DNA from: a virus
Length of the DNA: 64,000 bases
Virus record (IMG/VR): IMGVR_UViG_3300043411_001118
Location: 1-64,000 of that record
Strand: one strand, 5' to 3'
Shown piece by piece: positions 4,872 through 60,990 of this stretch. Position 1 is the first letter of the stretch. Each line of letters begins with the position of its first letter. Under the pieces are notes generated by a model, which ran no database searches, was not told the DNA's origin, and worked only from the letters and a program-made list of their open reading frames with translations. Made by a program: the position numbers and the translations under genes.

Positions 4872-5225
4872 ATGAAAACTTACAAGCAAATTTTAAAAGA
4901 ATCAAAAACCTTACTTAGTGAAGATGGATTTCTCAACAGCTTAGAGAGTCTATTTGATCTCAAAAAGGCTAAGCAGAATGTGAAGGCTGGAGTTTCTTTA
5001 ACCAAGGAAATGATTCAAGCCGTCAAAAAACACGATCCAGAAGACAAGGCAACTATAAAAGATTATGAGAATGACATCTACGACTTAGAAGAAATTTTTC
5101 TTGCATTGGATAACGAAGAGGTAACAGAGGCAATTAAGATGTTTGATAAGTTAAGTGGTGATATCGCGGATAGGGTAATCGATCCGGTACAATATAAAAG
5201 ATCTTTTCGCAAAGATTTTTTCTAG
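4872..5225 (+). CDS. putative internal head protein
   Basis: N-terminus MKTYKQILKE resembles the T4 capsid-targeting sequence; in late operon. Confidence 0.55.
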   Translation: MKTYKQILKESKTLLSEDGFLNSLESLFDLKKAKQNVKAGVSLTKEMIQAVKKHDPEDKATIKDYENDIYDLEEIFLALDNEEVTEAIKMFDKLSGDIADRVIDPVQYKRSFRKDFF

Positions 5226-5271
5226 AATCGTCCCTGAGCTACCGAAGGAGCAAGAGCTAAACTTCCCCATC

Positions 5272-6291
5272 ATGAAAAAATACTCCACATTTCTTCTTGA
5301 AGCTCAACTCACACATTCCGATGCAGTTAAAATTCTTGGGCTAAAGCCCGGATACTCTCCAGACGATCTATCCTCGACCTATAAGCTAATGGCTAAACTT
5401 CACCATCCAGATAAAGGTGGGGATGTTGAGCAAATGAAACAGATCAATGCAGCTTATAATTTGCTGAAGGGATCGCCATCTGGAGATGATGAACAAAAAT
5501 CTTGGGACAAGTATCAGGCTAGAAAAAAACGGGATACCGAAAACTTAACTGATATCTTAGAAGTCTTTACTAAGAAATATCAACCAGGAATCTTTAAAGC
5601 CTATTTTGAAGACATCTACGGTATATCATTTAAGATGGAAACTTCATCACATATTGGAATGTATGGAGCTAATGTAAAATCGAAATACTTTAGTGAAGAT
5701 CGCGGAACTGTTATTGATATTGAATTCTATATGTCCGTGAATAGTACCAACGGAGATGCGAAATTAGGACCAGACGAACATTCTGGAGTTGGAATGACTA
5801 TATCCAGGACGATTTTTCATAACAGGAGACGGATCAAACTAGCTCAACAGAACTATTCGTTTGAATCGGACTATCGAGTGTTATCACAACCGGAGAAATT
5901 GTTTCCTAAAGACAAGATGGTTGATAAGTCTAAGAATGCAGGAAATTTGAAATTTAAGAAAGCTGATGCAATCTTAACAATCAAAAATGAGTTAGGTGCA
6001 AGGTGGGATGGAACCCAGTGGATGCGGATTCCCTTGAATGACAAATATACCTTGGTAATTTATCGATTGACTTCAATGGGTATTGGAACATGGGGAACTA
6101 GTGGGATCTACGAAGGGAACCGGCGCGTATCGAATGGACCGTTTCTATTACTAGTTGAGAATCAAAAAATTATCTACTGGTTTGTCGAACAGGTCAAGGG
6201 ACGATTACAGAAAGATATCGACTTAGCGCACATTCAAAAAGTTTTGATCGACATGGGCGCAGAATATAAAGAGTTGATCAAGAATCTTTAG
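5272..6291 (+). CDS. J-domain (DnaJ-like) protein with capsid-targeting-like N-terminus
   Basis: ILGL...YKLMAKLHHPDKGG...INAAYNLL with HPD motif; N-terminus MKKYSTFLLE. Confidence 0.85.
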   Translation: MKKYSTFLLEAQLTHSDAVKILGLKPGYSPDDLSSTYKLMAKLHHPDKGGDVEQMKQINAAYNLLKGSPSGDDEQKSWDKYQARKKRDTENLTDILEVFTKKYQPGIFKAYFEDIYGISFKMETSSHIGMYGANVKSKYFSEDRGTVIDIEFYMSVNSTNGDAKLGPDEHSGVGMTISRTIFHNRRRIKLAQQNYSFESDYRVLSQPEKLFPKDKMVDKSKNAGNLKFKKADAILTIKNELGARWDGTQWMRIPLNDKYTLVIYRLTSMGIGTWGTSGIYEGNRRVSNGPFLLLVENQKIIYWFVEQVKGRLQKDIDLAHIQKVLIDMGAEYKELIKNL

Positions 6292-6451
6292 CGATTTTAG
6301 CAGTAGAATTCGCAACTAATTTTTCGATATCCCATAAAGTCACTTTAGTAGCACCCCTCAGTTCTGGAGTCATTAACGAGTAATGTATTTTACTCCACAC
6401 ATGGCTTTTAATATTGATACGAACTAGTTGGTAATTTGCTTTTGGTTTCAT
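6278..6451 (-). CDS. 57-aa mini-protein missed by the ORF track, paralog of 7092..7292
   Basis: hand translation MKPKANYQLVRINIKSHVWSKIHYSL...KVTLWDIEK matches the paralog. Confidence 0.8.
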   Translation of the reverse strand: MKPKANYQLVRINIKSHVWSKIHYSLMTPELRGATKVTLWDIEKLVANSTAKIAKDS

Positions 6452-6465
6452 ATTCTGGTGTGTCC

Positions 6466-6878: not shown

Positions 6879-6884
6879 AATTAT

Positions 6885-7085: not shown

Positions 7086-7091
7086 AATTGT

Positions 7092-7292: not shown

Positions 7293-7296
7293 ATTC

Positions 7297-8083: not shown

Positions 8084-8089
8084 ACTATC

Positions 8090-8302: not shown

Positions 8303-8303
8303 A

Positions 8304-8504: not shown

Positions 8505-8505
8505 A

Positions 8506-9345: not shown

Positions 9346-9346
9346 A

Positions 9347-11052: not shown

Positions 11053-11063
11053 GAATTAAAACC

Positions 11064-11594: not shown

Positions 11595-11602
11595 AATAAA
11601 TA
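11595..11602 (+). promoter_or_regulatory. T4-type late promoter
   Basis: AATAAATA 5 nt before ATG 11608. Confidence 0.7.
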
Positions 11603-11607: not shown

Positions 11608-12642
11608 ATGAAATTCTCCCAATTCTTAACTGAACTGCAAATAGCTAAGCTTCCAGGATTGGGCCTAGCAAGGCATAAAATGCCTCAGATTGCCGGGGAT
11701 AAGATTCAAGCATTCCTAGCCAAGCTTAGGCAAGACGGCATCTCAAGCCGAACTACGACCATTGAGGCATCAAGGCTGAAGCCGACTCAGAATGAATACA
11801 ATGTCGAGAAAGTCAAGGCATTGAAGCAACAGATCTTGAATCTGGACCTGAAGCCAAAACCATTAATCTGTTCTATTGATAACTACATTCTAGATGGTCA
11901 TCACACTTGGTTAGCTCGTAAAGAAATTAATCCACACTACCCAGTTCATGTTATCCAAGTGAACCTTCCTATTAAAGCATTGATTGATGTCGCATCTGAA
12001 TTCGAACACGCAAGACATAAGAATATTCATGAAACGTTTTTAAGTTTTTTGCGCGAAAAGAAAGAACCCGTTACTGATCCGAGACAGCCTTGGGAGAATC
12101 CAAAGGATGTTGAGAACACAGAGGCATTGAAGAAATATTATGATGAAATCATTTCAAAAATTCAAGAAGCTAAAAATGCATTCAATAGAATTTTGAAATT
12201 AGAAGGTCAAGGCGGGAAAGTTCTTTTGGGTTTGAAGCCGTTTGATAGTTTTATTGATAAGGTTGTCAAACGAGGAAAACCGGCAGATCAAATTCATGAT
12301 GTGCTTCGCGGAGCAATCTTGATGTCAACAAGTGAAGATGTTGATCGTGTTGTAAAGAGCATTGCTAAAAGATATCGAATTTACGAACACGAAGTAAAAG
12401 ATAAAGAACATACGAATGAGTTTGGTTATTATGGTTCACACCATTTTAAAATATTAGTTCCAACTAAAACTTCTGGTGGAGTTATTGCGGAAATTCAGAT
12501 CATGACAAAAAAACTTTGGTCATATAAATCTGTCGCACATGACATCTATACCAAGTGGAGAAGTTCAGAGGAAATTGATTCTGATATCCGAGCGCAGGAT
12601 GTTGCTTGGTCAAAAGAATTATTTCGGCTTGGTAATCGCTAG
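11608..12642 (+). CDS. ParB/Srx-domain + RelA/SpoT small alarmone synthetase-like fusion with capsid-targeting-like N-terminus
   Basis: LKPTQ...ILDGHHTW (ParB/Srx); KPFDSFIDK, HDVLRG, GYYGSHH, EIQIMT, AHDIY (SYNTH motifs); N-terminus MKFSQFLTE. Confidence 0.82.
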   Translation: MKFSQFLTELQIAKLPGLGLARHKMPQIAGDKIQAFLAKLRQDGISSRTTTIEASRLKPTQNEYNVEKVKALKQQILNLDLKPKPLICSIDNYILDGHHTWLARKEINPHYPVHVIQVNLPIKALIDVASEFEHARHKNIHETFLSFLREKKEPVTDPRQPWENPKDVENTEALKKYYDEIISKIQEAKNAFNRILKLEGQGGKVLLGLKPFDSFIDKVVKRGKPADQIHDVLRGAILMSTSEDVDRVVKSIAKRYRIYEHEVKDKEHTNEFGYYGSHHFKILVPTKTSGGVIAEIQIMTKKLWSYKSVAHDIYTKWRSSEEIDSDIRAQDVAWSKELFRLGNR

Positions 12643-13756: not shown

Positions 13757-14170
13757 TTAGTGGTTTATGTTGTCTAAGAATGATTTGTCAAATATTGTTA
13801 CTGTTTTAATAGCAAGATCTCGACCCCAAATAACTTGGTTTTCTACCTTTTCAGATTTTTCTGCGTCCGATAGTCTGGCTGTGTTGTCAGTCACATCAAT
13901 ATAAACCAGCCCACCATGACCGGTTGTATCGTGATGTCCTGGTGGATTGTCGTTGTGATACCACCGGAAAACATTTTTTAAATTGGCCTGACCATAGTAA
14001 GCAATATCATCTTTATCACATGGAAAAAGTGATCTGTCTCGCACCCCAGAATTTTTAAATGATATCCATCCAGTCGATCCATTAAGTCCTCGACGACCAA
14101 TTTTAACAGTAAAGTTTGGTGGTAGTTTGTCCGGGGATGCTTCATTGAGAATTTCTTTGAACGATTTCAT
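13757..14170 (-). CDS. putative internal head protein
   Basis: N-terminus MKSFKEILNE; TAAATA (14177-14182) 6 nt before ATG. Confidence 0.65.
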   Translation of the reverse strand: MKSFKEILNEASPDKLPPNFTVKIGRRGLNGSTGWISFKNSGVRDRSLFPCDKDDIAYYGQANLKNVFRWYHNDNPPGHHDTTGHGGLVYIDVTDNTARLSDAEKSEKVENQVIWGRDLAIKTVTIFDKSFLDNINH

Positions 14171-14175: not shown

Positions 14176-15511
14176 TTATTTAGATCCAACTAATAGTTTA
14201 GCATACTTTACAGCAGCATCTTCGTTATTGAAGATTTTAATGGTTTGTACTAGACCTCCAGATTCATCGTCCCTGAGAATAACAGAGTATTTTTCTGTAA
14301 CGGGATTAACTACAAATGTCGTTATCTCAAATTCTGCATTCGTAAATTTGTGAATCGTCCCTGGCAAATCTTTCATAATAATCCCCTACTTTTTGCTAAA
14401 CCAAACATTCTCGATCCCATTCTCATCCTACAGAATTCCTCAATTGTCTCACACCCGCTGTCCTGATATGCGCCCATAGTGAGACCGTATTCTTCAGCAA
14501 TGAATAATAACGCCGCCGTCTTCTCATCTCCACCGGCGCGTCCAAACAGATATTTTTGTCTGAGTATTCGGATCTCTCCCCGACCTCGTTTCCTCATTCC
14601 GAATGTATGGATGATCTGTTCAACTTGTTGTGTGTTCATTTTATTAATCCCCGATATCCAAGGTGCTGAAAGTTTCTTTTATCGGTACATGCTTGGGGCT
14701 ATTAAGTCCACCTTTTAGTATGAATGAGTTGGAGATCATTCCCCAATCAAAAAGTCCAGTATTAAATATCGCCCTAGTGATCGCTATTGTATCCTGATAG
14801 GATGTTGACTTCTCCCTAACCAACTTCGACTCGAAATCTCTTATGGAATATTTTGCAGATTCACCCTTGGATATTAATTCCTGCAAAATATTTTGAATTT
14901 CCTCCGCAAGCAAATCAATATCGACGGACTCATTTTTCGGTGAATCCGGAATCATATAATGTGGATATGGTGCGTAAAAATATAACATTTCGTCTCCTAT
15001 TAAATGTGTCTACCTTGTAATCTCAATAACATTTCGATCTGAGTGTTTGTGAATCCATATTTGGAAGCACGAAGTTTAAAAACCTCTGTCTTACTGTATT
15101 CCCTCACATGAAATTTTTTCACATCGTAAGCATGGCCCGGATAACTATCCTGGAAAATTTTAAAAAGTTGATCGGCCTTACTTCTCCCGCCACAAGCCTT
15201 CTCAAAATTTTCTGTTTCTTTCTGTTCGTTGTACATGATGTTTCCTACTTTTTTAAAAATTCAGCGTCAAATTCTCTAACTGCTTTCGCTCTTTCCTCAG
15301 CAAAACTCTTGGCCCCATTCAGAACCGATTTTGCCAACTCAGAATATTCCCCGTAGGCAACAGCAAGTTCAAGAACAAATTTTTTGTTTGTCTTAACTTC
15401 ATTTTGAACGGATTCGAAAATCCGACCAACCTTTTCGCCGTTTCCATTAACAGCAGCTTCCCACATTCTGTGAATCGCCAACTGAACCAATCTTTTATTT
15501 CCTTTCATCAT
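14176..15511 (-). other. early operon of five hypothetical ORFs (14176..14376, 14373..14639, 14644..14988, 15000..15236, 15245..15511)
   Basis: packed minus-strand ORFs downstream of the promoter at 15580. Confidence 0.65.
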
Positions 15512-20620: not shown

Positions 20621-20650
20621 GTTTTTATTTAAATATTAAAAAATCAAGGA

Positions 20651-29457: not shown

Positions 29458-29828
29458 TCTTTGCTCCACGCAATGATTAAACAAGATTCTTCAAGAACAG
29501 TACCATTATTAAGAGTAACTGAAAAGTCTACTTGATATCTCATATCAGAAACGAAGTTGGATACCACAACCGAACAAACAGAATTTGTGACCAACTTTGT
29601 GTACTGATCGAGAATCTCTGGTGTTGGAGTAGCCTCCCCAAATTCATTCGCGGAGACGGTAAATGAAAGGATTGTGTTGTTCCCAATTCTTTCCTCAAAA
29701 TCCATTTCAAGTGTATCGGTTTCTCCCTCAACAACATCGATCTGTAGATATTCGGGAATTTGAATTGCTCCACCAGACAACCTTCTAAAAGATATATTCC
29801 CTGGTATTGATTCGCGGTAGATTGTCAT
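29454..29828 (-). CDS. putative fibre/tail adaptor protein
   Basis: small beta-rich protein resembling the next ORF. Confidence 0.45.
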   Translation of the reverse strand: MTIYRESIPGNISFRRLSGGAIQIPEYLQIDVVEGETDTLEMDFEERIGNNTILSFTVSANEFGEATPTPEILDQYTKLVTNSVCSVVVSNFVSDMRYQVDFSVTLNNGTVLEESCLIIAWSKE

Positions 29829-35364: not shown

Positions 35365-35414
35365 TTCTTTTGGTATTTATCGAAATAATTCCTAGATTTC
35401 GCATATATAATGTT

Positions 35415-46738: not shown

Positions 46739-49009
46739 CTAATTCAATGGTTGTTTATTAAAATCAACCGGACATGCCCCACCATCACACTTCACATGAG
46801 AAAAATCTAAGTCTTCCTTCTCTTCTCTAATTATTGCCCTAGAAATTTCTTCGTATTGAGCCTTAGTAATTGGTTCTTCTGGTTGATATTCATATGCGGT
46901 CATATCTGCTTGTGGCATGACCGAACAACACTTAATTTTTTTCTGATGTAAGTACAACATCCGTTTAAATTCTGCATAAGAAACTAATTCTGGACGATAC
47001 TTAAGAGTATAAGAAATCTGATTTCCGTATTGTTGTTCTTGTTGAACCCCATTTTCATCTATCCCATCTATCCAATATTTTTCTCCGAGAACCAACCATT
47101 GATATTGCTCTCCTGGTGTAGCATCTCCTGCCATAACCAACCTATCCTCCATCCCCAATGACGCAATTGTTGGACAAGTCGGAAACCCGATAATAACGGT
47201 TCCTTGATAAGTTTTTAATTCTCTTGTTGGATACCCAGATTTTTTATACGTCTCGACCAAAGAATCATCCGAACGAAACTGCACCCATCGTAAATAATAA
47301 CTCATTGCGGGAAGGTGCCAGCCTTCAGTAAGACCAAAAATTTTCGATGTAGTACCGGCTGGCTTGATGGTTGTCATCGTATGTGGAATATTTCGTCCAA
47401 GAATTTTTGAATATTTTTCGGACTCATCTTTTACTGCATGGTTAAATCTATTGAGCGTTAACCAAAAATCTTTTGATTTCTTTTCATCGATTAAATCTCT
47501 AAAACCATAACCAAAAAATTTCCATGCGAATTCGTGAATACCTGTAATACCAACTCCAATCCGATTTGTTCGATCTACTTCTTTCTTGTATAAAAAATCC
47601 ATTAGATTTGTTCTGATGAGCGCCCGTGTAGTTGCGCGAAACGCATCTTCTGCTTCATCTAACGTATCGGCATGAAATGGAACAACATCAGCTATTGTGC
47701 AATAGGCACCAAGCATGTTTAGAGCCACTTCACCACATGGGTTAGTGATCATTACATTTTTTTTCTTCTTTGCTCTCTTTGCCAGTTTACTCATCAGTAT
47801 TTGAGTATCATCATTAAGCTGATATTTTTTACTTCCAACGTAATCGCCCCGATTCAAATCTTCCCATCCAGACAAATTTTGAGCCAACTTATCTTGATTA
47901 ATAATCCCCGGTTCTCCTGTTCCATCTGCATAAGAACAGAGTGTTAATAATTCATGAACCTTTCTTGCATGAATTGCTAATTCGGATTTGTATTTCGAGT
48001 CTTTCTTTTTGAGTGATAGTAAATCCCAATATTCTTTATCGACCGTAACGCTATTATTTGAAGACCACAAAAAACTGAACAAGGACGATTGTTTTCTGAG
48101 ATTAATTATTTTTTCTAAATCCGCGCCGATAAATTCTATCGGACGCTTTATTTGAATAAAGTCTAAAATTGTTTTGTCTCTCCAATTTTTTGTGGACATC
48201 CGGGCTGCGCGTCTCGCACCACCAACCAATACACACTCCGCGAAATAATGATCAATGAACAGTGCTTGTTTCCATGCCGACAGGCCAGCGCCTTTTAATG
48301 ATGCTGCCTTTTGAAAAGCGTTCATCAATGGAACGGGACCACTCGCAGGACGATTTTGCATCCCACCAATCAAAGAACCTCTGCACCTAACTTTTGAAAA
48401 ATCCAAGATCAGCATTTTATCTCGGTGAATTTTTTCGAACGCCGAATTTTCCCAAATTTCTAATGCCTTAGCCCAACCTTCTCGACTATCTGGAACCTCG
48501 AACCAAAGAATGTCCTTTCCGTTTCCGTATTTGTGTTTAGCATCCCTAGCACTTTCATGTGCTGAAAAATCGAAATCTTTGTGCGTTTCGTCTAAAACAC
48601 ATCTAATCGTTGGAGCATTATCCCAATTCACAACAATAACATCATCATCATATGCACGACCCACACCCGACCCATTTAAAAGCAAATAAAATAATAAAAA
48701 TGATGTTGGGGCAGTAGCACAATTGGTAAAAACCTCTCCATTTCTTAGTGGCTGATTAATATCTCCATGTTGTAAGTGTCTGCCCGATAACAGAATAGTT
48801 CCCTTAGCAATGTGTTGCTCTAAAATATTCCCCTCTTGTTCCCCACGATTCTCATCAGGATCTAATAATGAATTTCCTAATGCAACACGCTTTGCAACAT
48901 CCCCCCAAGATTCCCTTTCCCCATTTTCTTTAATTCTTAATATTGTTCTTTCAGCAACAGCTTGACCCATACCAGAGTCTAATTCTCTAACAAATATTTT
49001 ATTGGACAT
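46739..49009 (-). CDS. nrdJ: class II (B12-dependent) ribonucleotide reductase
   Basis: FTNC, DSREGW, TNPCGE, RIGVG.TG, TIKPAGT, C-terminal CDGGACP; no beta subunit adjacent. Confidence 0.85.
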   Translation of the reverse strand: MSNKIFVRELDSGMGQAVAERTILRIKENGERESWGDVAKRVALGNSLLDPDENRGEQEGNILEQHIAKGTILLSGRHLQHGDINQPLRNGEVFTNCATAPTSFLLFYLLLNGSGVGRAYDDDVIVVNWDNAPTIRCVLDETHKDFDFSAHESARDAKHKYGNGKDILWFEVPDSREGWAKALEIWENSAFEKIHRDKMLILDFSKVRCRGSLIGGMQNRPASGPVPLMNAFQKAASLKGAGLSAWKQALFIDHYFAECVLVGGARRAARMSTKNWRDKTILDFIQIKRPIEFIGADLEKIINLRKQSSLFSFLWSSNNSVTVDKEYWDLLSLKKKDSKYKSELAIHARKVHELLTLCSYADGTGEPGIINQDKLAQNLSGWEDLNRGDYVGSKKYQLNDDTQILMSKLAKRAKKKKNVMITNPCGEVALNMLGAYCTIADVVPFHADTLDEAEDAFRATTRALIRTNLMDFLYKKEVDRTNRIGVGITGIHEFAWKFFGYGFRDLIDEKKSKDFWLTLNRFNHAVKDESEKYSKILGRNIPHTMTTIKPAGTTSKIFGLTEGWHLPAMSYYLRWVQFRSDDSLVETYKKSGYPTRELKTYQGTVIIGFPTCPTIASLGMEDRLVMAGDATPGEQYQWLVLGEKYWIDGIDENGVQQEQQYGNQISYTLKYRPELVSYAEFKRMLYLHQKKIKCCSVMPQADMTAYEYQPEEPITKAQYEEISRAIIREEKEDLDFSHVKCDGGACPVDFNKQPLN

Positions 49010-50060: not shown

Positions 50061-51086
50061 CTAGCACCGCTTCCACATTTTAAACTTAGCTAACGCCAAT
50101 GCCCCAGAGAATGTGTTGTCATCAATTATTTTGTGAACCTCTTGAGAGGATTTCCCAGATAAAACCATGTCATTGATATCCTTATCAACAATCGTCCTTG
50201 GCCATACCACCACATATCCCCCAGACTTAATGACCTGTTCCTGATTTTTACAGACCTCAAAATTCCTTGGCTGATTGTCAAACACATACACCGGATCTTC
50301 TATTTTGATTCCTGTCTCATCCTCAAAAGTTTTGAGCTTCTGTTTTAGAGAAGCATTCATTGCAGCTAGAGCATTTGGGAGAAATAAAGAATCAATTGGA
50401 CCCTCAACCACGTATGTTTTTTTGTTTGGTGTCCAAGTATCAATCCCATACAACATAGCATCGTCATCGAGTTTTGTTGTGATATAACGTAGTACATTTG
50501 GATCTGTTGAAAGTGTGCGCCCCTGGATCGCAACAACCCCACCAGACTTATTAAAAACGGGAATAACTATTCTCGACTCTACATTTCGTTCTTTGTATCT
50601 TGTGGGAAATGTCGTATTAACCAATCCCCAGAAATCGTCCGTGTAATATAATCTGTCATATTTTTCAATTGGAATTTTTCTTCCATCCAAATACTTTCGC
50701 GCCGGATGCTCAACATCTAATTTTGAAATCAATGTTGAACCAACAAATTTTTTCTCAACATCTTTCTTAACTGGTCGAATTAATTTTTTCTGAGTCGGCC
50801 TCTGTGGATTGACCTTATTTTTATGAAGTTCGAGGATGTACTCTCGATGTAACGATGGATCGATATCCTTCAAGAAATTATAAAACGATTTTGCAATCCC
50901 ACAATTATGACAATAGAAATATATCTCCTGATTTTTTCCAAGGAAATATCCGCGAGTTTTTCTCTTACTCTTTTTTGAATCTCCACAAAATGGACAAGAA
51001 CAAACCCAGAGTCCAACATTTTTCTGTTTAAAATTTCTTAATTGATTCGAAACGAATCTTAGATATTGAACCTCAAGATAATACAT
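50061..51086 (-). CDS. gp61: DNA primase
   Basis: CPFCGDS..K.RG, CHNCG, EGPIDSLF, DNQPRN, KDINDM. Confidence 0.96.
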   Translation of the reverse strand: MYYLEVQYLRFVSNQLRNFKQKNVGLWVCSCPFCGDSKKSKRKTRGYFLGKNQEIYFYCHNCGIAKSFYNFLKDIDPSLHREYILELHKNKVNPQRPTQKKLIRPVKKDVEKKFVGSTLISKLDVEHPARKYLDGRKIPIEKYDRLYYTDDFWGLVNTTFPTRYKERNVESRIVIPVFNKSGGVVAIQGRTLSTDPNVLRYITTKLDDDAMLYGIDTWTPNKKTYVVEGPIDSLFLPNALAAMNASLKQKLKTFEDETGIKIEDPVYVFDNQPRNFEVCKNQEQVIKSGGYVVVWPRTIVDKDINDMVLSGKSSQEVHKIIDDNTFSGALALAKFKMWKRC

Positions 51087-53439: not shown

Positions 53440-54375
53440 CTACCACTTAGTTCCAAAAGACAACACCCCATATGTGTGTGTGTTTGCCTTTTGTTCAACA
53501 TAATCCTTAGTTCTAATATTGTAGTCGAATCGAATGATGTAGTTGTGATACTCAACATGAATACCCATATTCATTGAATTAACAACGGGTTCTGAATCAA
53601 CAGTATGAATATTATCCTGAAACAAACTCCCATCATAATGGAGATTTCTAACAACCGCACGAGCCGACAAATCAAGAGAAGTATAACAAATAAAATCATC
53701 CAATTTCTGAGCATTGTCCATACCCGGAACATTGTATCCGAGTCTCCATCCATGAACGAATTCGAAATCTGTATGGACCGTTCCTGCCCTATAATTTGTT
53801 GCTCCGACAGAAACAAAATCCCAATCACGAAAATTAGAACGATGGTTTTCCCACATCCTAGAATAGTTAATGTTCAATGTTGGTTCATCTGCAATCTGAT
53901 TGTCCCATCCATTTGGTGGTGCGCCCTTTCCCAGATCGTTATGAATAAATTTTTGAAGTCCCTCCGCGCCCGAATACTTTCCGACAACACCCAATGCAAT
54001 TTCTGTACTGATTCTTCGTTCACTATTTGCATTGATTCTCTTGGCTCTAAATTCTAAGAGTCCAGAATATGGAACATCATCTTCAATGACATTCGGATTT
54101 CGAATGTCATCTGGTGTGTACATGTTCTGTTCCACCGTGAATAATATTCTGGAAAGTTTCTTTGGATCTTGATCATCTACAACCAAAGAAGGAATCGTTT
54201 CTGCAAAATTTTTAATCGTCTCCGAAGCCTTTTCAGCTTCAATGTTAGTCTGAAACCTAATCTGGGACGTAAAATTTTCATCTGTATTTCCGATGATGTC
54301 GTTTGAGAGATTGAACGAATGTCTTCCGGTGCAACTTGATAGGATTAGTATACAGAGAATTAAGATTTTTTTCAC
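53440..54375 (-). CDS. lpxR: LpxR-family lipid A 3'-O-deacylase (outer-membrane beta-barrel)
   Basis: SND..G..D..FT, Q.MYTP.DI, D.PYSG.L, GVVG..SGAE..Q..IH, GWDNQI, C-terminal W. Confidence 0.85.
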   Translation of the reverse strand: MKKILILCILILSSCTGRHSFNLSNDIIGNTDENFTSQIRFQTNIEAEKASETIKNFAETIPSLVVDDQDPKKLSRILFTVEQNMYTPDDIRNPNVIEDDVPYSGLLEFRAKRINANSERRISTEIALGVVGKYSGAEGLQKFIHNDLGKGAPPNGWDNQIADEPTLNINYSRMWENHRSNFRDWDFVSVGATNYRAGTVHTDFEFVHGWRLGYNVPGMDNAQKLDDFICYTSLDLSARAVVRNLHYDGSLFQDNIHTVDSEPVVNSMNMGIHVEYHNYIIRFDYNIRTKDYVEQKANTHTYGVLSFGTKW

Positions 54376-54386
54376 GAACCGATTCC

Positions 54387-54836
54387 TTAGTTATAAGCAA
54401 ACTCCATTCCGTATTCGTGTAATAGTGGTTCCAATACCGATTTCAGATGTGGATTGAAACAGTATATAGGTATGTTAAACTTCAGCGCCCAACGGATTTC
54501 TGTGGCCATTTGAAATGTAATTTCATCTCCGGCCAACCACAACTCATCAAAAAATCCTTTCTCAAAATATACATAATTCATTTCAACAGCTTTTTGAAGT
54601 TCTCCTGCATGTGCTTCATCAACTAAACGGTATGACATGTAGTATGGGGTTATTGGATTAACGAACGGATAATTTTTTATAATGTGGTGAACGAGATTTT
54701 CGATTTTGATCAAGTTGCCGTCTAGGTTATCTCCGATAGTTGGATGAGAAATGTAGGCAACGAACCGGGACGATTTGACTTGATCGTAGAGATAACTTTT
54801 ATTCTTAGCTTTACTCATGTTGTTAACCGTATGCAA
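54387..54836 (-). CDS. nucleoside deoxyribosyltransferase-like (DUF4406-type) protein
   Basis: YISHP..G....N, DELWL.GD....M..EI..A....IP. Confidence 0.65.
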   Translation of the reverse strand: MHTVNNMSKAKNKSYLYDQVKSSRFVAYISHPTIGDNLDGNLIKIENLVHHIIKNYPFVNPITPYYMSYRLVDEAHAGELQKAVEMNYVYFEKGFFDELWLAGDEITFQMATEIRWALKFNIPIYCFNPHLKSVLEPLLHEYGMEFAYN

Positions 54837-54904
54837 CCTTACTTATTCAGACAACACTAGTTTATCAGAGATCTACTATTTGTCTAGTTTGGCTACTTCC
54901 AAAT

Positions 54905-55474
54905 CTATTTATTTGGTTTTGGGCGGCGTGTGAGTTTTAAGAAATCGTCAAATGTCTTCTTTTTGTATTTTTCTTGTGCAGATTTTGAAACGGCTGGATC
55001 ATCTCCATCATGACCCGTTCCGGCAATGGCTCCGGTCCCGACTGCATTAGCCGCTGCATCCTCAGTGAATGACTTGATCCATTCCTCAAATTCTTTTCTT
55101 CTTTCCTGAACCATTTCAAACCAATCCGTAACAGACTCAACTAATAGATCTGGATCTCGATCATAGTCTTTATTATTCTGTTCTTTTAATAGGAACAATG
55201 CAGCCGCGAAGGACGCGATTCTGGTTTTTCCGAATGGAAGTTTTTCTAAGATTCTTTTTAAATTGAATACCAATCTATCAAATAGTGTGTATGCATTTTT
55301 TTCTTCTGGAGTTTTTAAATCTTTCCCTTTCTTTAAAACCTTCCCATCCTTATCGATAATTCCCAATTCGAATGCTTTAGTTTTTTCAAATGGTGTGGTC
55401 AGACGCTTCAGTGTTGAATACAACATCAACAAATCAATCGCAACATTTTCTGTTAGAAAACATTTTGTTTTCAT
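54905..55474 (-). CDS. conserved T4-like late protein
   Basis: LKRLTTPFEKTKAFELGIIDKDG, RLVFNLKR, AAALFLLKE. Confidence 0.75.
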   Translation of the reverse strand: MKTKCFLTENVAIDLLMLYSTLKRLTTPFEKTKAFELGIIDKDGKVLKKGKDLKTPEEKNAYTLFDRLVFNLKRILEKLPFGKTRIASFAAALFLLKEQNNKDYDRDPDLLVESVTDWFEMVQERRKEFEEWIKSFTEDAAANAVGTGAIAGTGHDGDDPAVSKSAQEKYKKKTFDDFLKLTRRPKPNK

Positions 55475-55884
55475 GTCTTTCCTAAAGTCTCTGCTACTTT
55501 TAAATCAACCGATATATCCTTTGATACAATATTTTCACCATTAATTAGTGGAATTGTATCTGGCATCAGAGAAAGATAAATCAAAAACGTCTTGAGTGTT
55601 GAATAGTGTTTCTTATCTATTCGAAAAAACAAAATCCTCGTTGCAGCCTCGACCCCAAAAATATTGTATAGCACAATAATATGATTTAAAATCAATCTAC
55701 AGTGTTTCTCTGTAATGATCTTTCTCTGACGGTATTTAGAAAATAACCGTTTGATATACTTGATCGTCTTTAGATCTTCTTGAAAATCTTCAATGGATAA
55801 GCACTGAGGATTTTGATAATGCCTCATGCAATATTGAGTAAAATTTTCTTCTAAGAGTGGTTCGCAAAATAGCATATTACCCAA
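55471..55884 (-). CDS. conserved T4-like hypothetical protein
   Basis: HY.NPQC...E.F.EDL..IKYIKRL, RLILNHII.LYN.FG. Confidence 0.75.
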   Translation of the reverse strand: MGNMLFCEPLLEENFTQYCMRHYQNPQCLSIEDFQEDLKTIKYIKRLFSKYRQRKIITEKHCRLILNHIIVLYNIFGVEAATRILFFRIDKKHYSTLKTFLIYLSLMPDTIPLINGENIVSKDISVDLKVAETLGKT

Positions 55885-55911
55885 GTATATAGGGCCATTA
55901 TGCTATTTCAT

Positions 55912-57150
55912 TTATGCGATTACTCTTGTTCCTGCTGCTGCTCCAACCGGGGCTGAAATGGTTTTTGTTGCTGCTGTTGCCGCTGTACCACCAGCAAATG
56001 TAGCTGCACCAAACGATCCATTCGTTAATGTCTCTGTTGATGCAAGAGAGTTTCCACCAGTTCCAGCCGTCTTCGCCGAGAAAACTGCATCCAGTGAATT
56101 TTGATCAGCATCAAGTGCTGACACCGCCGCATGAATCGTCATTGACGTTGCGTAATTTGTTCCAGCTACTCCAGTCAAGTTAACAGCCGCAATCAAATTC
56201 GCTAACGACTCAGCCGCACTCGATCCAATTTTTACGTTTCCATCAACATCAGTAAGTGTTGTTTGGAATGTATATGTTCTTGAACCAAGAACAACTGTCT
56301 CTGTATTGAGTGGTTGTCCAGTCAGTGTAAGAGTAGCAACCGCCGCAACTGCTCTGTTGCTTTCGACAATTGTTCCACCGAGAGTTTGTGCGCCAATAGA
56401 GAGTGTTCCACTATTAGTAACACCACCAGTGAATGTCGCTCCGGGAAACGATCCATTCGTTAATGTCTCTGTTGATGCAAGAGAGTTTCCACCAGTTCCA
56501 GCCGTGAGTGCTGTGAAAACTGCTGTGTCTCCAACGCCCATAGCCGCGCTTACTGTAGCATGTGCAGTAGTAGCCGCCGCATATCCTGTTCCAGAACCAG
56601 CGCCAAGCATAACAGCCGCAACTAAATTTACTAAAGATGCGTTTGCACTAGCTCCAATAAAAACGTTTCCGTCCACATTTGTTAATACAGTTTGGAACGT
56701 GTAAGTTCTTGCACCGATTGTGACGGTTTCTGTGTCTAGTGGTTGACCGACTAGTGTGAGTGTTCTCGATGCTGCAACCGACGATGGTACTAGTTGGTTT
56801 GTTGAATTGTCGCTTTGCTTATTATAAACAACTTCCGACACACCAGACTGAGCCGCCGCATAAAGTGTGATGTCTCCACCACCTTGAGTCGATGAAACAA
56901 CAATGGTCGAACCAGCCGTAACATCAACTGGTTGACTAAATCGAGTTTTAACCGATAATGCCGCGCCCTGAGTTAAAGATGCTGCAACGAAATATACCTC
57001 AGCCGCCGCACTTGCTCCAGCTTTGCTCGATCCTCTTGGAATGGCAACGTAAACTTCACCAGTCGTAACACCCTCCCATCCACGATGAGTTAATACGCAA
57101 TCTTCGCTTGTCACCCATGAAGGTGCAGATGTTAAGGACCAACGTGCCAT
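55912..57150 (-). CDS. A/G/T-rich virion protein with a duplicated internal domain
   Basis: two copies of TLTL.GQP..TETV..G.RTYTFQT; TAAATA 57189-57194, AGGAG RBS. Confidence 0.65.
   Translation of the reverse strand: MARWSLTSAPSWVTSEDCVLTHRGWEGVTTGEVYVAIPRGSSKAGASAAAEVYFVAASLTQGAALSVKTRFSQPVDVTAGSTIVVSSTQGGGDITLYAAAQSGVSEVVYNKQSDNSTNQLVPSSVAASRTLTLVGQPLDTETVTIGARTYTFQTVLTNVDGNVFIGASANASLVNLVAAVMLGAGSGTGYAAATTAHATVSAAMGVGDTAVFTALTAGTGGNSLASTETLTNGSFPGATFTGGVTNSGTLSIGAQTLGGTIVESNRAVAAVATLTLTGQPLNTETVVLGSRTYTFQTTLTDVDGNVKIGSSAAESLANLIAAVNLTGVAGTNYATSMTIHAAVSALDADQNSLDAVFSAKTAGTGGNSLASTETLTNGSFGAATFAGGTAATAATKTISAPVGAAAGTRVIA
56011..56505. repeat. perfect 60-bp direct repeat (56011-56070 and 56446-56505)
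   Basis: identical sequence AAACGATCCA...TTCCAGCCGT. Confidence 0.95.
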
Positions 57151-57207
57151 TCGATTTCTCCTAGAATTGAAATATCTTTCTAAGTGGTTATTTAGCAGAT
57201 TGAGGAA

Positions 57208-57966
57208 TTATTGAATGGAGCTAATTAGCTTTCTGGCACTAACAATTTCAAAAAAGGTTCTACCTATGATAGAATTCAACTTATCCAGTCTGAACAGGGT
57301 ATCTCCCCAGATTGGTCTATAATGTAGACAGTTCTCCGATGGAACAGCTAACAATTGACCTGTCGTTCTCATCGTCCCTCGACCATCTCCCATCCGTAAG
57401 GGAGAATCGTCCTGGTCCAATTGCATCAATACGTCCATCAATTCGATTGGAGTCTTACTCATCGACATCGATATTTCTGGAATTTTTATATCATCTCGAT
57501 TAGAAATGACTGTTGACGATGACCTTGATAACTCTTTAACAGCCGATGAATATACACCATCTATATTACTGCCATCTAACACAAATGCTTTCTCGGAATT
57601 CATCACCAAAACATTTCCTGTGATCTCTTGTTCCTTTAAAATCTCAATTGACTCTTCTGGAGTTGATGCATATAAAGCTTTTCTGACTCTCAGACCCTCC
57701 GGTGAATTGTATTTTCTTTCTTCTCGATTCGCCCGTCTAATATCGGATATCTCATTTTCGATATCGATTCTTGGACAAACCAAAACAACTAAACCGTGTT
57801 CGTTTAATCCTTCGGAGAATCGACTGACCTCATCCCAAAGGAACAAACGTTCGATATCATTTCGAAAACTCTTTCTGATTCTGATCCTTGGCTTATAATT
57901 ACAGTCTCGATTCTTCGCCGCGACAAATCCAACACCATTAAAATATTTGCAAACTATAGTTGACAT
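57208..57966 (-). CDS. Ntn-hydrolase-fold peptidase/amidase
   Basis: AKNRD, EGLNEHGL, TTGQ motifs. Confidence 0.7.
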   Translation of the reverse strand: MSTIVCKYFNGVGFVAAKNRDCNYKPRIRIRKSFRNDIERLFLWDEVSRFSEGLNEHGLVVLVCPRIDIENEISDIRRANREERKYNSPEGLRVRKALYASTPEESIEILKEQEITGNVLVMNSEKAFVLDGSNIDGVYSSAVKELSRSSSTVISNRDDIKIPEISMSMSKTPIELMDVLMQLDQDDSPLRMGDGRGTMRTTGQLLAVPSENCLHYRPIWGDTLFRLDKLNSIIGRTFFEIVSARKLISSIQ

Positions 57967-58742
57967 TATCCAAACCTTTTCTGATAAGCATTAAAAAGCG
58001 AGAACTGTTTTTTCACCATAGATGCCCAAGATTTTGCTCGATTTTGGAGTGAGTGATCTCCCTCGATGAAAGTTGCGTAATATGCATTAATCAAATATGA
58101 AACGACATCTGCTGAGTATGTGTCATCGGGAAGATTGTATTTTTTAATCGCCGCCTGTGATACATCCCAATATGCATTTATCCGCTTATCAATGTCATCA
58201 GGAAGAATGAGTCGCGGAACATCATCCACCAAATAATCGATAAACCCATAAAATTTAGTAACTGGAACACCACTAAATTTCAGAACTATCCCCTGTACCC
58301 ACGGCTGAAATTCTATGTCTTGAAAAATATATTTAGCACCATCCAACCCACGTCCACCTGTCTCATAATTAAGAGTTTTCCAAGGCGTTAGTTTTTGTCT
58401 GGAGTGTATGAATTCGTGGATAAATGTTGATAGTAGGGTTTGTGCAGTTCTGGGCTTATTCCATATCGAATCGTGAACCGTAGGAACTCCCAAATAAATT
58501 TCATCTGGTGTCCTGAATTCTCCGTTAATTGATCCCGATATACGAAACACAACCTCCATTTGCGGCCCAAATTGTTTCGTTTCGTTTGAAAGTTGATCGG
58601 CCATTGATACCAGATCAACATTACCCTTCGCCCCCATGTCACGAATATTTTTTGAAATAATTTCTTTGGACGATTGATAGAGTTTGTAAAACTTATCAAT
58701 GAACGATTCATTCAGAAACGATTTAAAGGAACGCCCTGACAT
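57966..58742 (-). CDS. zincin-like metalloprotease with capsid-targeting-like N-terminus
   Basis: HEFIHSRQ and downstream E in QDIEFQPW; N-terminus RSFKSFLNE. Confidence 0.7.
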   Translation of the reverse strand: MSGRSFKSFLNESFIDKFYKLYQSSKEIISKNIRDMGAKGNVDLVSMADQLSNETKQFGPQMEVVFRISGSINGEFRTPDEIYLGVPTVHDSIWNKPRTAQTLLSTFIHEFIHSRQKLTPWKTLNYETGGRGLDGAKYIFQDIEFQPWVQGIVLKFSGVPVTKFYGFIDYLVDDVPRLILPDDIDKRINAYWDVSQAAIKKYNLPDDTYSADVVSYLINAYYATFIEGDHSLQNRAKSWASMVKKQFSLFNAYQKRFG

Positions 58743-59536
58743 TATCCAAACCTTCTTCGATATATCTGAAACAATTTAAATTCTTTTTTAATAACCTTGA
58801 TCCAAGACGTTGCTCGACTTTTTAACTCATCATTACCAATTTGGAATGTCGTATTATATACATCTATTAAATTCGAAACTGCGTTTGTTGTTGATGGATC
58901 TTTAGGAATATTAAATTTTTGTAAGATTTTTGAAGTAGCGACAACAATTTCAAATTGTCGTTGACTATCTGGACCCAAAAAAGAAAATTTCATTTCTGGA
59001 ACTTCGGTTATTAGTGAATCGACAAACGCATTAAAATTTCCTTCGGGAACATCTATAAATCTTAAAATGGTTCCCTGTATCCACGGTTGAAATTCCAAAT
59101 CTTGGAACATATATTTGGCTTGTTTTAGTGAAGATCTGCCACGTTGAATATAGGATGATTTAAAATATTCCGCTGAAATTTCTTGCCGAGAATGAATGAA
59201 CTCATGAATTATGGTCGAAATCAATTTGGTTATTATATGTTCTTTTCTCCAAACAGGATCAACAAACATCGGAACATATAAATTTATTTTTTTATCGTCT
59301 GAAAAGTATACTCCGGAGATTGAGATGTTATTTTTTCTATTTTGTATAAACTCAATTTCAATCTTATCTCCAAACCTAGAAAATTCCAAAGAAATTTTCC
59401 TCTCAATTTTAGGAATGGCATCAGAAATTTTGTTGTTTGCTACTAGCTCATCATTCAAAATTTTTGTGATATTCTGGTAAACAGTATAGAACTTGTCCAC
59501 GAACGATTCATTTAGGAATGTCTTGAATGTTCGCAC
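58742..59536 (-). CDS. zincin-like metalloprotease with capsid-targeting-like N-terminus, paralog of 57966..58742
   Basis: HEFIHSRQ, QDLEFQPW; N-terminus MRTFKTFLNE; TAAATA 59546-59551. Confidence 0.7.
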   Translation of the reverse strand: MRTFKTFLNESFVDKFYTVYQNITKILNDELVANNKISDAIPKIERKISLEFSRFGDKIEIEFIQNRKNNISISGVYFSDDKKINLYVPMFVDPVWRKEHIITKLISTIIHEFIHSRQEISAEYFKSSYIQRGRSSLKQAKYMFQDLEFQPWIQGTILRFIDVPEGNFNAFVDSLITEVPEMKFSFLGPDSQRQFEIVVATSKILQKFNIPKDPSTTNAVSNLIDVYNTTFQIGNDELKSRATSWIKVIKKEFKLFQIYRRRFG

Positions 59537-59544
59537 TGGACCAC

Positions 59545-60762
59545 TTATTTAAAATCTAATTTTTCGAACGCCTCATCGATTGACTCTTTTTTTAAGTCAT
59601 CGGATTTTTTCTGAACATCTTTCTCTCGACGATCCGCTTCACGCTCTTGTTGTTTTTTCTTGAAGTCTTTCTCTCGCGCCTTTTCTAAATCGTAGGCTTG
59701 CTTATCCTTAATTCGATCAAGATCGTCTGTTTGTTTTTCTTTTGTTTTCTGAGCCTCTGTCTTATCGAGATCTGAACCTTCCTCTTGGATGTCTACAATA
59801 TACTGAGTTGCTAAAAACTTAGTAGCACCCACTCGATCTCCATTAAACAAAACTTTTGGTGCTAATAGTGGTTGGTGCATATTTCCGGATTTAGTAATGA
59901 TATACCGACCATTTTCTTTACGAACAAAAATAGTTCCATTGACCGTATCTGCAACAGCAATTTCTTCATCACGATCAAGTATTTTAATATCTTCTTTTGC
60001 CGTTCTCAATCGAAGACCATCTATTTCTGATGGTGACAGACTGCCAGACTCGTACATAGATTTTTTGTTTTTAGGATCGTCTGGATCTGATCCATAAATT
60101 TTATCTGGATCTAGTTTGTATTTCTTTATTTCTTTATCAATACCAGCTTTAATTTGTTTTGCTAATGTTACGTTTCCGTGTTTTCTGGTTATTTTATAGT
60201 CAGAAACCCAATGAGCTAAACCCTTTAATACACCATCAGGAACCGACTCATAAAGATTTCCTTCAATATAATTCTTTGCTAAGAAGCTTTTAGCCCCGCC
60301 CCTATCGCCATGAAACACCACTTGTTTTGGTTTATCTTTTGATTGAGTCGTAATGCGATACTGTCCATTAAAAATACTGATGCCCAGTGGTCCAATTTCC
60401 GTATCAAAAACCTGTGCATGTGGAGATTTGTTACGATTCTTTTGAAACTGGTTATCTGCAACTTGAAGATCTCGTTCGGCCTGATCTTGTCGGAGTTTTT
60501 CTGAAGACTCTGTTATGGTGTCTTTCCCCTTGATCATATCAGTCAATTCTTTTTTGATTTTCTTAGCAACTTCCCCGCGCCATGAGGATGCATTGGAAAG
60601 AAATCCCGCAAGAATAGATGATGCACTGTCCATAATATACTTGTCTGACATCGAGTGAAGATCATACATAGCCTCAAGATATGGCTTAGCTGCAAAATTT
60701 ACTGGCTTCCAGTTGGCTTTGATCTCATATGCGATTGTTGAAATTGGACGATTTTTTGCCAC
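59545..60762 (-). CDS. modular putative internal head polyprotein
   Basis: short modules separated by ITE/LYE/MYE/IQE; one module duplicated (F.GDR.GA..FLA..YI). Confidence 0.55.
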   Translation of the reverse strand: MAKNRPISTIAYEIKANWKPVNFAAKPYLEAMYDLHSMSDKYIMDSASSILAGFLSNASSWRGEVAKKIKKELTDMIKGKDTITESSEKLRQDQAERDLQVADNQFQKNRNKSPHAQVFDTEIGPLGISIFNGQYRITTQSKDKPKQVVFHGDRGGAKSFLAKNYIEGNLYESVPDGVLKGLAHWVSDYKITRKHGNVTLAKQIKAGIDKEIKKYKLDPDKIYGSDPDDPKNKKSMYESGSLSPSEIDGLRLRTAKEDIKILDRDEEIAVADTVNGTIFVRKENGRYIITKSGNMHQPLLAPKVLFNGDRVGATKFLATQYIVDIQEEGSDLDKTEAQKTKEKQTDDLDRIKDKQAYDLEKAREKDFKKKQQEREADRREKDVQKKSDDLKKESIDEAFEKLDFK

Positions 60763-60990
60763 TTAATTGATCTCCTGCTGTGCTTTGATAATTGAACTAA
60801 GGAGTGTTGCTAAGACACCCTTTTTAAGAACCGTTTCGATATCCTTAAACTCATCTTTGGAAGCCAATTTTTCTAGCTCTCTAAGAGTTTCTACAATCTC
60901 TTTTTTAGCTCGACTCATAGAGACTGTTCCATATCCACTAACATGAATTTGTGGATCGATATCTTCACAAAGATTTTTTAAAGTTTTCAC
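60763..60990 (-). CDS. putative internal head protein
   Basis: GTGA-coupled start gives MKTLKNLCE. Confidence 0.55.
   Translation of the reverse strand: MKTLKNLCEDIDPQIHVSGYGTVSMSRAKKEIVETLRELEKLASKDEFKDIETVLKKGVLATLLSSIIKAQQEIN

Follow-up and report, generated by a model that had tools for sequence, protein, structure and literature searches.

Six dispersed proteins of a distant, uncultured T4-like myovirus probably share a T4-type capsid-targeting N-terminus

Results

A short N-terminal tag opens dispersed genes

The window analysed here is a stretch of 64,000 nucleotides of viral DNA, the first 64 kb of a 103.8 kb contig (IMG/VR). A preliminary description had placed N-termini resembling the capsid-targeting sequence (CTS) of phage T4 at eight starts. 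All eight were present, on the plus strand at 4872, 5272 and 11608 and on the minus strand at 14170, 55474, 58742, 59536 and 60990, and as a family six of them carry the full pattern, while the start at 55474 has the processing half and that at 60990 is doubtful. "Tag" is used below for this N-terminal pattern. The genes are:

4872..5225, plus strand: tagged ORFan, 117 aa, acidic (pI 4.8); tag at residues 1-10 in exact T4 register
5272..6291, plus strand: tagged J-domain protein, Rki homolog, 339 aa; 10-aa tag ahead of the J-domain
11608..12642, plus strand: tagged two-domain protein, 344 aa; 9-aa tag, N-terminal half and C-terminal RelA/SpoT domain
13757..14170, minus strand: tagged ORFan, 137 aa; tag in exact T4 register
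57966..58742, minus strand: tagged HExxH protein, 258 aa; 12-aa tag; tandem paralog of 58742..59536
58742..59536, minus strand: tagged HExxH protein, 264 aa; GTG start; 10-aa tag in exact T4 register
54905..55474, minus strand: partial-tag protein; 9-aa N-terminal add-on with F-L-x-E, without an aromatic at P7
60763..60990, minus strand: doubtful member, 75 aa; GTG start; L-x-E at residues 7-9

Judged by its genes, the phage is a distant, uncultured T4-like myovirus. The contig encodes a gp23 capsid protein (family E 1e-125), a gp22-type scaffold (contig 92878-94413; phrog_237 E 9e-31) and a gp21-type prohead protease (contig 94470-95147; Peptidase_S77 PF03420 E 2.9e-42; phrog_207 maturation protease E 1.7e-66); the portal protein was also recognised by a PHROG match, and the gene order of T4 is matched (gp3-gp2-gp4 and gp48-gp53-tail protein). 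No phage record exceeds 57% identity to the capsid protein, the nearest relatives infect Methylophilales, Pelagibacter, Stenotrophomonas and Sinorhizobium, and a megablast search of 54000-62000 against phage records gave no match and no close cultured relative. Because the contig is only about 57% complete, the census of tags is partial. The propeptide of the capsid protein ends in M-L-G-E followed by Ala and thus has the [hydrophobic]-L-x-E form of the tags; we take this junction to be the position at which T4 gp23 is cut.

The pattern M-[K/R]-x-[F/Y]-x-x-[F/I]-L-x-E opens the proteins starting at 4872, 5272, 11608, 14170, 58742 and 59536. In the T4 CTS, residues 4 and 7 are reported to govern targeting and residues 8 and 10 processing (PMC9026906), and all of these positions are retained in the six tags, in exact T4 register in four proteins and with an offset of -1 in one and +2 in another. 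The tags are 9-12 residues long, position 8 is invariably Leu, and the L-x-E half is the best conserved part. The codons differ between the genes while the residues (aromatic, hydrophobic, Leu, Glu) hold a fixed spacing. Under a rule preset from what is published on T4 (an aromatic residue at 4, a hydrophobic one at 7, L/I at 8 and E at 10), four genes were found in the exact T4 register where chance predicts 0.089 (P = 2.4e-6), and six in registers of 9-12 aa where it predicts 0.35 (P = 2.0e-6); the search of N-termini that had been suggested earlier, extended across the contig, thus showed enrichment of the tag (P about 2e-6). Among the 32,511 residues of the 182 contig ORFs, [FY]..[FI]L.E occurs nine times, six of them N-terminal (0.45 expected).

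The tag is also frequent in related phages. Across 46 related IMG/VR loci it opens 28 ORFs of the coding strand (2.75 expected) and none of the opposite strand. Written as a DNA pattern, the canonical 10-codon tag recovers ipII and ipIII in T4 and has no match in T5, phiKZ, SPO1, P1 and Dickeya phage XF4 (781 kb in total). Tag-type starts are found in T4 on ipII, ipIII and gp61.1, and Paraglaciecola virus GD1 has six matches. T4 gp61.1 is not known to be a head protein, and its CTS-like start therefore means that the motif alone does not prove packaging. In an all-against-all BLASTP comparison of the cargoes only the tandem HExxH pair was related, other similarity being limited to residues 1-15, which bears out the earlier claim that the proteins behind the tag are mutually unrelated, that pair excepted.

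The cargo includes J-domain, RelA/SpoT and HExxH proteins

A candidate enzyme and a chaperone cofactor, kinds of protein which the preliminary description had named as cargo, were both recognised by Pfam domain matches. The J-domain of 5272..6291 scores 33.5 bits against Pfam DnaJ (cut-off 27.8, E 4.7e-8), with HPD at residues 45-47, and the protein aligns over residues 8-281 with Rki of phage RB43 (ORF057w; tblastn E 3e-14, 25% identity). The C-terminal half of 11608..12642, a solitary plus-strand gene amid minus-strand genes, matches Pfam RelA_SpoT (PF04607; 42.8 bits, cut-off 27, E 7.5e-11, residues 210-314); the protein has PHROG matches as well. Its EIQ and H..Y.K-like segments are present, and the former reads EIQIMT, with Met for the Arg of EIQxRT; members of the RelA/SpoT family usually have EIQIRT, and the catalytic activity of this domain is uncertain. 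The N-terminal half, putatively ParB-like, resembles a GD1 gene annotated as "nuclease" and has a homolog in Dickeya phage XF4 that by annotation only is an "unknown structural protein", the one hint of a place in the virion; the two halves are separate genes in GD1. An internal F-L-S-F-L-R-E near residue 150 was considered as a retained second tag and provisionally set aside, since its counterpart in the RelA/SpoT protein of GD1 is an internal stretch, not the N-terminal tag.

The two HExxH proteins form a near-orphan family, for which a word-based homolog search retrieved only the query itself. The GTG at 59536 is the sole start that takes in the segment conserved with the paralog 57966..58742. 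HEFIH, which sits in a predicted helix, is invariant in both paralogs and in a related fusion protein (P0003), which has I-N-E followed by Ser at its domain junction, resembling a processing site. The AF2 model (pLDDT 73) had no Foldseek match in the PDB at E <= 0.001, and a wide VIA-align search gave a best Z of 6.8, to unrelated helical proteins; with no significant fold match, the comparison speaks neither for nor against a zincin fold, and the candidate enzyme nature of these proteins, as zincin metallopeptidases, derives from the motif by itself.

Two of the tagged genes code for ORFans. The product of 4872..5225, the penultimate gene of a plus-strand baseplate operon, had no homolog in PHROG, Pfam and word-based searches, the last of which found only the protein itself, and that of 13757..14170 had none by tblastn against phages or by a word-based search, which again found only itself, and no usable lead in the ESM Atlas.

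The add-on of 54905..55474, which holds the processing half of the tag and position 7 only, precedes a domain conserved in distant T4-like phages, and residues 1-7 of its AF2 model (pLDDT 70) lie under pLDDT 50. Comparison of the model of this family with BFVD matched only uncharacterised phage proteins, and T4 gp61.2 was ruled out as a relative (hhalign probability 0.07). The GTG at 60990 lies within ORF 60763-61014 and could plausibly be a start that overlaps the stop codon of the upstream gene in a GTGA; as a full member of the family it was rejected, lacking the aromatic targeting positions.

Homologs of the cargo differ in their tags

Among homologs of the same cargoes in other T4-like phages, the tag was kept, absent or swapped. 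Rki homologs of T4-like phages of Variovorax, Desulfovibrio, Vibrio and Aeromonas have a 10-aa tag, whereas the RB43 protein is untagged and begins four residues ahead of its J-domain. RelA/SpoT homologs of SRB7757 and GD1 each have a tag of their own, and homologs of 54905..55474 without the add-on were found in HTVC008M, Melnitz, phiM12 and about 30 IMG/VR loci. These comparisons support a tag that is portable between cargoes and lineages, in keeping with what had been proposed from the window.

Tagged genes lie behind late motifs or in late operons

The hexamer TAAATA is enriched 5' of starts on the contig, with 24 of its 66 copies no more than 48 nt away (0.058 expected per distance bin), and the genes for capsid, scaffold, portal, tube, sheath and terminase are among those it precedes. 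In T4 the late motif spans -13 to -6 (PMC1524935). The copies that had been reported beside tagged genes were recovered exactly (the first three lines below), and a fourth heads the transcription unit that extends to 54905:

11597..11602, plus strand: late-promoter core TAAATA, 5 nt ahead of the 11608 ATG; no Shine-Dalgarno sequence
14177..14182, minus strand: late-promoter core, within CTAAATAA, 6 nt ahead of the 14170 ATG; overlaps the upstream stop codon
59546..59551, minus strand: late-promoter-like TAAATA, 9 nt ahead of the 59536 GTG; overlaps the upstream stop codon
57189..57194, minus strand: canonical late-promoter core CTAAATAA, 38 nt upstream of a 412-aa gene (55912-57150), Shine-Dalgarno sequence next

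Genes 11608, 13757 and 58742..59536 each have their own copy, 57966..58742 follows 58742..59536, 54905 is downstream of two copies, and 4872 and 5272 close the baseplate operon. All seven candidate genes thus have a late motif or a position in a late operon, and three of the motifs are unusually near the start codon (5-9 nt). The three tagged genes that adjoin a promoter lack a Shine-Dalgarno sequence, while 4872, 54905 and 57966 have ordinary ribosome sites.

Discussion

It seems likely that six proteins (4872-5225, 5272-6291, 11608-12642, 13757-14170, 57966-58742 and 58742-59536) carry a working equivalent of the T4 CTS, and 54905-55474 is a possible seventh bearer. By analogy with T4, the tagged proteins are probably packed in the virion, and we infer a sequence of docking, cleavage, packaging and injection. 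The tagged genes would be expressed late in infection, the N-terminal peptide of 9-12 residues would dock the proteins onto a gp22-type scaffolding core during prohead assembly, and a gp21-type protease would cut behind the Glu of [F/I]-L-x-E and free the mature protein inside the head. Upon infection the cargo (the Rki-like J-domain protein, the ParB-like/RelA-SpoT fusion, the two HExxH proteins and the two ORFans) would exit with the DNA into the host and provide ready-made activities at entry.

The principle is already known for T-even phages, in which a conserved CTS on diverse internal proteins has been described (PMC3012670, PMC9026906), that of IPII and IPIII (also IPI and Alt) being removed by gp21 (Mullaney and Black 1996, reviewed in PMC9026906 and PMC3012670). 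Because it is textbook knowledge for T4, what is new here is the cargo and the breadth, not the mechanism. The likeness extends to a leader of about ten N-terminal residues (aromatic at 4, hydrophobic at 7, L/I at 8, Glu at 10) common to otherwise unrelated proteins, to the gp21-family protease, gp22-type scaffold and gp23 encoded here, to late expression signals and to cargo that is ORFan-like and fast-changing. Unlike T4, this very distant phage is known from sequence alone, its tagged genes are dispersed, three of them with a promoter abutting the start codon, and in its cargo one can recognise domains typical of enzymes or cofactors (J-domain, RelA/SpoT, HExxH), where T-even phages are known for small inhibitor-like proteins. 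In giant phages such as SPN3US and phiKZ, N-terminal propeptides of ejection proteins have been proposed to direct these into proheads, and a gp21-related protease takes them off by cleavage behind a Glu (PMC5694885); a head-directing N-terminal segment, a gp21-related protease and a cut after Glu are likewise proposed here, but those propeptides have 80-130 residues and an A/S/G-x-E motif, in contrast to the short T4-type decapeptide.

The tag may instead load proteins that are in part or in whole components of assembly or of the core, degraded or inert and not injected as effectors, for instance a J-domain protein that brings host DnaK to the assembling head. We consider this unlikely, although likelier than the other alternatives. 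The product of 4872 is acidic, whereas T4 internal proteins are basic and DNA-bound. In T4, gp21 cleaves the core proteins gp67, gp68 and gp22 as well, and these contribute to assembly (PMC5694885); DnaK is reported to take part in the handling of the T4 portal (PMC9958956). Against this, Rki, the characterised homolog of the J-domain cargo, targets host DnaK and sigma-32 early in infection (PMC3486835), which fits delivery at entry, and the ORFan, fast-changing nature of the cargo resembles that of the host-directed internal proteins of T-even phages (PMC3012670).

That the tag is a cleavage signal only, with the prohead protease or another protease trimming the proteins (e.g. for activation) and no loading into the head, is improbable, even though the L-x-E half is the best conserved, the add-on of 54905 has that half only and the domain junction of P0003 looks like a processing site. 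T4 gp21 becomes active inside assembled proheads, so its substrates are already there, which counts against mere trimming. Moreover, the aromatic positions 4 and 7, which serve targeting and not cutting (PMC9026906), are kept in the six proteins and in many relatives.

Least probable is a sequence habit without a sorting role, be it a preference of initiation (for A-rich codons behind the ATG where the mRNA has no leader or a weak one) or an amphipathic helix of a generic kind at the N-terminus: three tagged genes do lie beside a promoter without a Shine-Dalgarno sequence, where early codons might affect initiation, and T4 gp61.1 has the motif with no known head role, but it is residues and not codons that are conserved at fixed spacing, the other genes of leaderless type, gp2 and gp32 among them, are untagged, tagged 4872, 54905 and 57966 own ordinary ribosome sites, and the motif, frequent in T4-like phages, is missing from the 781 kb of phages outside that group.

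Returning to the reading of the tag as a CTS equivalent, the Rki-type protein is an example of a possible shift. The J-domain protein Rki of RB43 binds DnaK, stabilises sigma-32 and is made early from a sigma-70-type promoter (PMC3486835). The protein of 5272-6291 aligns with it across the J-domain, HPD included, and most of the C-terminal domain, yet RB43 Rki has 237 aa and no tag, whereas the protein here has 339 aa, a 10-aa CTS-like leader and a gene at the end of a late baseplate operon. With one member tagged and the other not, the pair would allow a clean comparison, set up by nature, of synthesis early in infection with delivery by the virion.

A broader proposal, which we put forward tentatively, is that the T4 CTS may be an address code of ancient origin that can be read from sequence throughout the T4 superfamily, that the set of delivered proteins could be listed from the genome, that lineages may shift one and the same host-directed function between early-made and injected through the gain or loss of ten codons, and that the set here may include a DnaK-directed J-protein and a RelA/SpoT-type enzyme. 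To our knowledge, neither of these two classes is known as virion cargo. If the proposal holds, the capsid-loading code of T4 would be near-unchanged across the deepest splits of the superfamily, and proteins that accompany the DNA into the cell could in practice be picked out by reading genomes. As candidate first targets of infection, the cargo suggests proteolysis, the chemistry of nucleotide second messengers and the stress circuit of DnaK and sigma-32.

Apart from the tag, many late promoters of this phage lie 5-6 nt ahead of an ATG with no Shine-Dalgarno sequence, a spacing that implies leaderless late mRNAs. The start-adjoining TAAATA was also considered as merely an upstream stop codon plus an AT-rich spacer. 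At 14177, 59546 and 1553 this explains the motif in part, but it fails at 11597 and ahead of the gp32 gene, and it was set aside because the pile-up at exactly 5-6 nt far exceeds expectation.

N-terminal leaders resembling the T4 capsid targeting sequence

Proteins scattered through the window had been proposed in the preliminary description to share an N-terminus resembling the capsid targeting sequence (CTS) of T4. All eight N-termini were found at their starts; six fit the pattern M-[K/R]-x-[F/Y]-x-x-[F/I]-L-x-E, and those starting at 55474 and 60990 are weak members of the family. The genes are:

4872–5225 (+), leader in exact T4 register; product an ORFan
5272–6291 (+), exact T4 register; J-domain protein (Pfam; HPD at residues 45–47), homolog of the characterised Rki (RB43 ORF057w)
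11608–12642 (+), leader one residue shorter than the T4 register; two-part protein with a C-terminal RelA/SpoT domain
13757–14170 (−), exact T4 register; product an ORFan
54905–55474 (−), F-L-x-E without an upstream aromatic residue
57966–58742 (−), leader two residues longer than the T4 register; HExxH protein
58742–59536 (−), exact T4 register, GTG start; HExxH protein
60763–60990 (−), L-x-E only; GTG start, overlapping the stop of the upstream gene as GTGA

Mutants of the T4 IPIII leader assign residues 4 and 7 to targeting and residues 8 and 10 to processing (review PMC9026906), and the positions conserved in the leaders of this phage are exactly T4 residues 4, 7, 8 and 10. Under a statistical rule fixed in advance from these four IPIII residues, 4 of the 182 N-termini matched in register where 0.089 were expected (P = 2.4e-6), and 6 matched in registers of 9–12 residues against 0.35 expected (P = 2.0e-6). 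A tighter pattern occurred nine times in the whole proteome, six of these being N-terminal, and the tag was found on none of the dozens of small minus-strand ORFs in early-looking regions.

Head machinery and candidate protease sites

The source is a single IMG/VR virus contig of 103,807 bases, rated as about 57% complete and covered by the window from base 1 to base 64,000, which on its gene content is a T4-like myovirus with the following head genes (contig positions):

91498–92814, Gp23-family major capsid protein (PF07068, E 1e-125)
92878–94413, gp22-type scaffold
94470–95147, gp21-family prohead protease (PF03420, E 2.9e-42; phrog_207)
96132–99260, portal

The T4 arrangement is kept at the left end of the window, where a tail-tube-like gene (phrog_45), gp2 (DNA end protector) and gp4 (head closure) on the minus strand are opposed by gp48, gp53 and a gene for a 478-aa tail protein on the plus strand. 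The capsid protein shares at most 57% identity with any deposited phage, the nearest being phages of Methylophilales, Stenotrophomonas, Pelagibacter and Sinorhizobium, and no close relative was found by megablast. The last residues of the capsid-protein propeptide are M-L-G-E, with Ala-Ala next; this is the probable point of gp23 cleavage, as in T4. Sites of the form [hydrophobic]-[L/I/V]-x-E are also present in the scaffold, the protease itself and small core-region proteins, and the tag thus ends in a site type found on the phage's own head proteins.

The portal gene encodes 1042 aa, and its portal profile match is split in two by a segment matching HNH endonuclease families; gp20 thus appears to contain an intein that carries a homing endonuclease. 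The phrog_45 tail-tube family is matched by two minus-strand genes, window 146–835 and contig 87058–87555, the latter with a late motif of the leaderless type described below. The N-terminus of 146–835 is similar to that of contig 99311–99877 (−), which adjoins the sheath gene and whose product is taken for a putative gp19 tube protein.

Diversity of the tagged proteins

As had been claimed, the tagged proteins are unrelated: all-against-all BLASTP related only the tandem pair 57966–58742 and 58742–59536 (38% identity), similarity among the others ending at about residue 15. HEFIH is invariant in this pair, whose family is almost unique (only two other proteins were retrieved when 1.8 billion representatives were searched with a profile); fold searches with the HExxH protein gave no informative match. 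The ORFan status of the 4872–5225 and 13757–14170 products matches what the hypervariable internal proteins of T-even phages show (PMC3012670). The N-terminal domain of the 11608–12642 product, putatively ParB-like in our reading, resembles the product of a gene annotated 'nuclease' in Paraglaciecola virus GD1, where the two halves are separate genes. Between these halves, at residues ~145–155 (window 12040–12072, +), lies an internal F-L-S-F-L-R-E, one of only three internal strict-pattern matches in the proteome. Its aligned counterpart in the GD1 homolog is again internal and tag-like, and a second protease site could lie here.

Late transcription signals

In this phage the late promoter core reads (C/T)TAAATA(A/C); CTAAATA has also been reported as the late motif of Aeromonas phage Aeh1 (PMC1524935). 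TAAATA occurs 66 times on the two strands together, and 24 of these copies stand at most 48 nt upstream of a start (0.058 expected per distance bin); TAAATA at 23–48 nt, followed by a Shine-Dalgarno sequence, heads the capsid, scaffold, portal, tube, sheath and terminase genes. The motifs previously placed at 11597, 14177 and 59546 are all exact. Genes 4872–5225 and 5272–6291 close the baseplate operon, 57966–58742 directly follows 58742–59536, and 54905–55474 lies downstream of TAAATA motifs at 57189 and 55733, so that all seven tag candidates are tied to late signals by a TAAATA of their own, a place in a late operon or a position downstream of such motifs.

In ten genes, including gp2, gp32 and three tagged genes, TAAATA ends 5–9 nt before the start codon without a Shine-Dalgarno sequence. 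These close-set copies and regions are:

window 1553–1558, close-set copy
window 11597–11602, close-set copy
window 14177–14182, close-set copy
window 59546–59551, close-set copy
window 20626–20631, region
window 30134–30139, region
window 35374–35379, region
window 61235–61240, region
contig 75156, region
contig 87562, region

Three stand at 5 nt, four at 6 nt and three at 9 nt, again against 0.058 expected per bin, and the 5-nt peak recurs in 46 related IMG/VR loci. Since the T4 late motif extends from −13 to −6 (PMC1524935), a 5-nt gap places the A of ATG at +1, which would imply leaderless late mRNAs.

Distribution of the tag among phages

Across 46 IMG/VR loci around genes sharing the domain of the 54905–55474 product (609 kb), 28 coding-strand ORFs, of about eight cargo families, start with the tag, where 2.75 were expected; on the opposite strand there was no such ORF. 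When individual phage genomes were searched with a DNA pattern of the canonical 10-codon tag, T4 ipII and ipIII (published sequence) and also T4 gp61.1 were recovered; RB43 gave one match, GD1 six, SRB7757 and Melnitz two each, and T5, phiKZ, SPO1, P1 and Dickeya phage XF4 (781 kb in total) none. T4 gp61.1 (NC_000866 18966–19130, −; 54 aa), which lies between genes 41 and 61, has the near-perfect CTS start M-K-T-F-K-E-F-I-K-E. It is not known as head cargo, so the motif can occur on a protein without that known role. The tagged cassette 54905–61229 is flanked by a DnaB-like helicase gene (62369–63781; Pfam DnaB_C; taken as gp41) and by 50061–51086, taken for a putative primase gp61, and its position may correspond to that of T4 gp61.1.

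The leader is also present in some and absent from other homologs of the same protein. Rki homologs of Variovorax phage V45v66, Desulfovibrio phage SRB7757, Vibrio phage VmeM-32 and Aeromonas phage G2 carry a 10-residue leader ending in Glu directly before the J-domain, whereas RB43 Rki starts four residues before it. The RelA/SpoT homologs of SRB7757 and GD1 bear leaders of their own. The domain of the 54905–55474 product starts at residue 1–8 in HTVC008M, Melnitz, phiM12 and about 30 IMG/VR contigs, and its nine-residue add-on was found only here among the homologs compared. In a related 459-aa protein from a representative library this domain is joined to an HExxH domain, the linker having I-N-E and then Ser where the tag ends in stand-alone HExxH proteins; this protein connects both families and points to fusion and fission of genes at tag or cleavage boundaries. 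In BFVD, the same type of domain is also N-terminal in much longer phage proteins.

Several adjacent genes of Pelagibacter phage HTVC008M (L010:2206–5050) begin with the targeting half, M-[K/R]-[S/T]-[F/Y]-x-x-F, and end in Asp or lack L-x-E. Because Asp at CTS position 10 allows targeting and blocks processing (PMC9026906), these proteins may be loaded but uncut.

Interpretation of the leaders

The simplest account takes the leaders for genuine equivalents of the CTS. Each would attach to the scaffolding core and then be removed by the gp21-type protease, the mature proteins staying in the head and leaving it with the DNA; docking, cleavage and exit, the steps beyond the presence of tag and machinery, we infer from T4. 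A role in assembly only, in processing only, or a mere translation habit would each be less consistent with the conserved aromatic positions, with the restriction of the tag to T4-like phages and with the host-directed function that Rki is known to have early in infection, Rki having an early promoter and appearing 5–8 min post infection (PMC3486835). That a CTS can sit on diverse cargo is already known: T-even internal proteins are a diverse defence set with only the CTS in common (PMC3012670), and the CTS has been suggested as a general loading route for varied proteins in T4-like phages (PMC9026906). In the part of the open-access literature that was covered, no paper was found that carries this idea over to distant T4-like phages from the environment or to cargo of these classes, and it is the cargo that is of interest here.

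Other genes in the window

A full-length homolog of LpxR (lipid A 3'-O-deacylase family; 53440–54375, −; PF09982, E 3e-57) with a lipoprotein-like signal is unusual in a lytic T4-like phage. A subtilase (28027–29484, −; Peptidase_S8, E 3e-56) with an N-terminal hydrophobic signal adjoins a run of large minus-strand genes without assigned function. The ribonucleotide reductase (46739–49009, −) shares 60.7% identity with the enzyme of the Acidobacteria jumbo phage Tunturiibacter phage Tunturi_5, its next-best matches being in Rhizobium phages, annotated as class II or ribonucleoside-triphosphate reductase; these matches may offer a hint of habitat or host.
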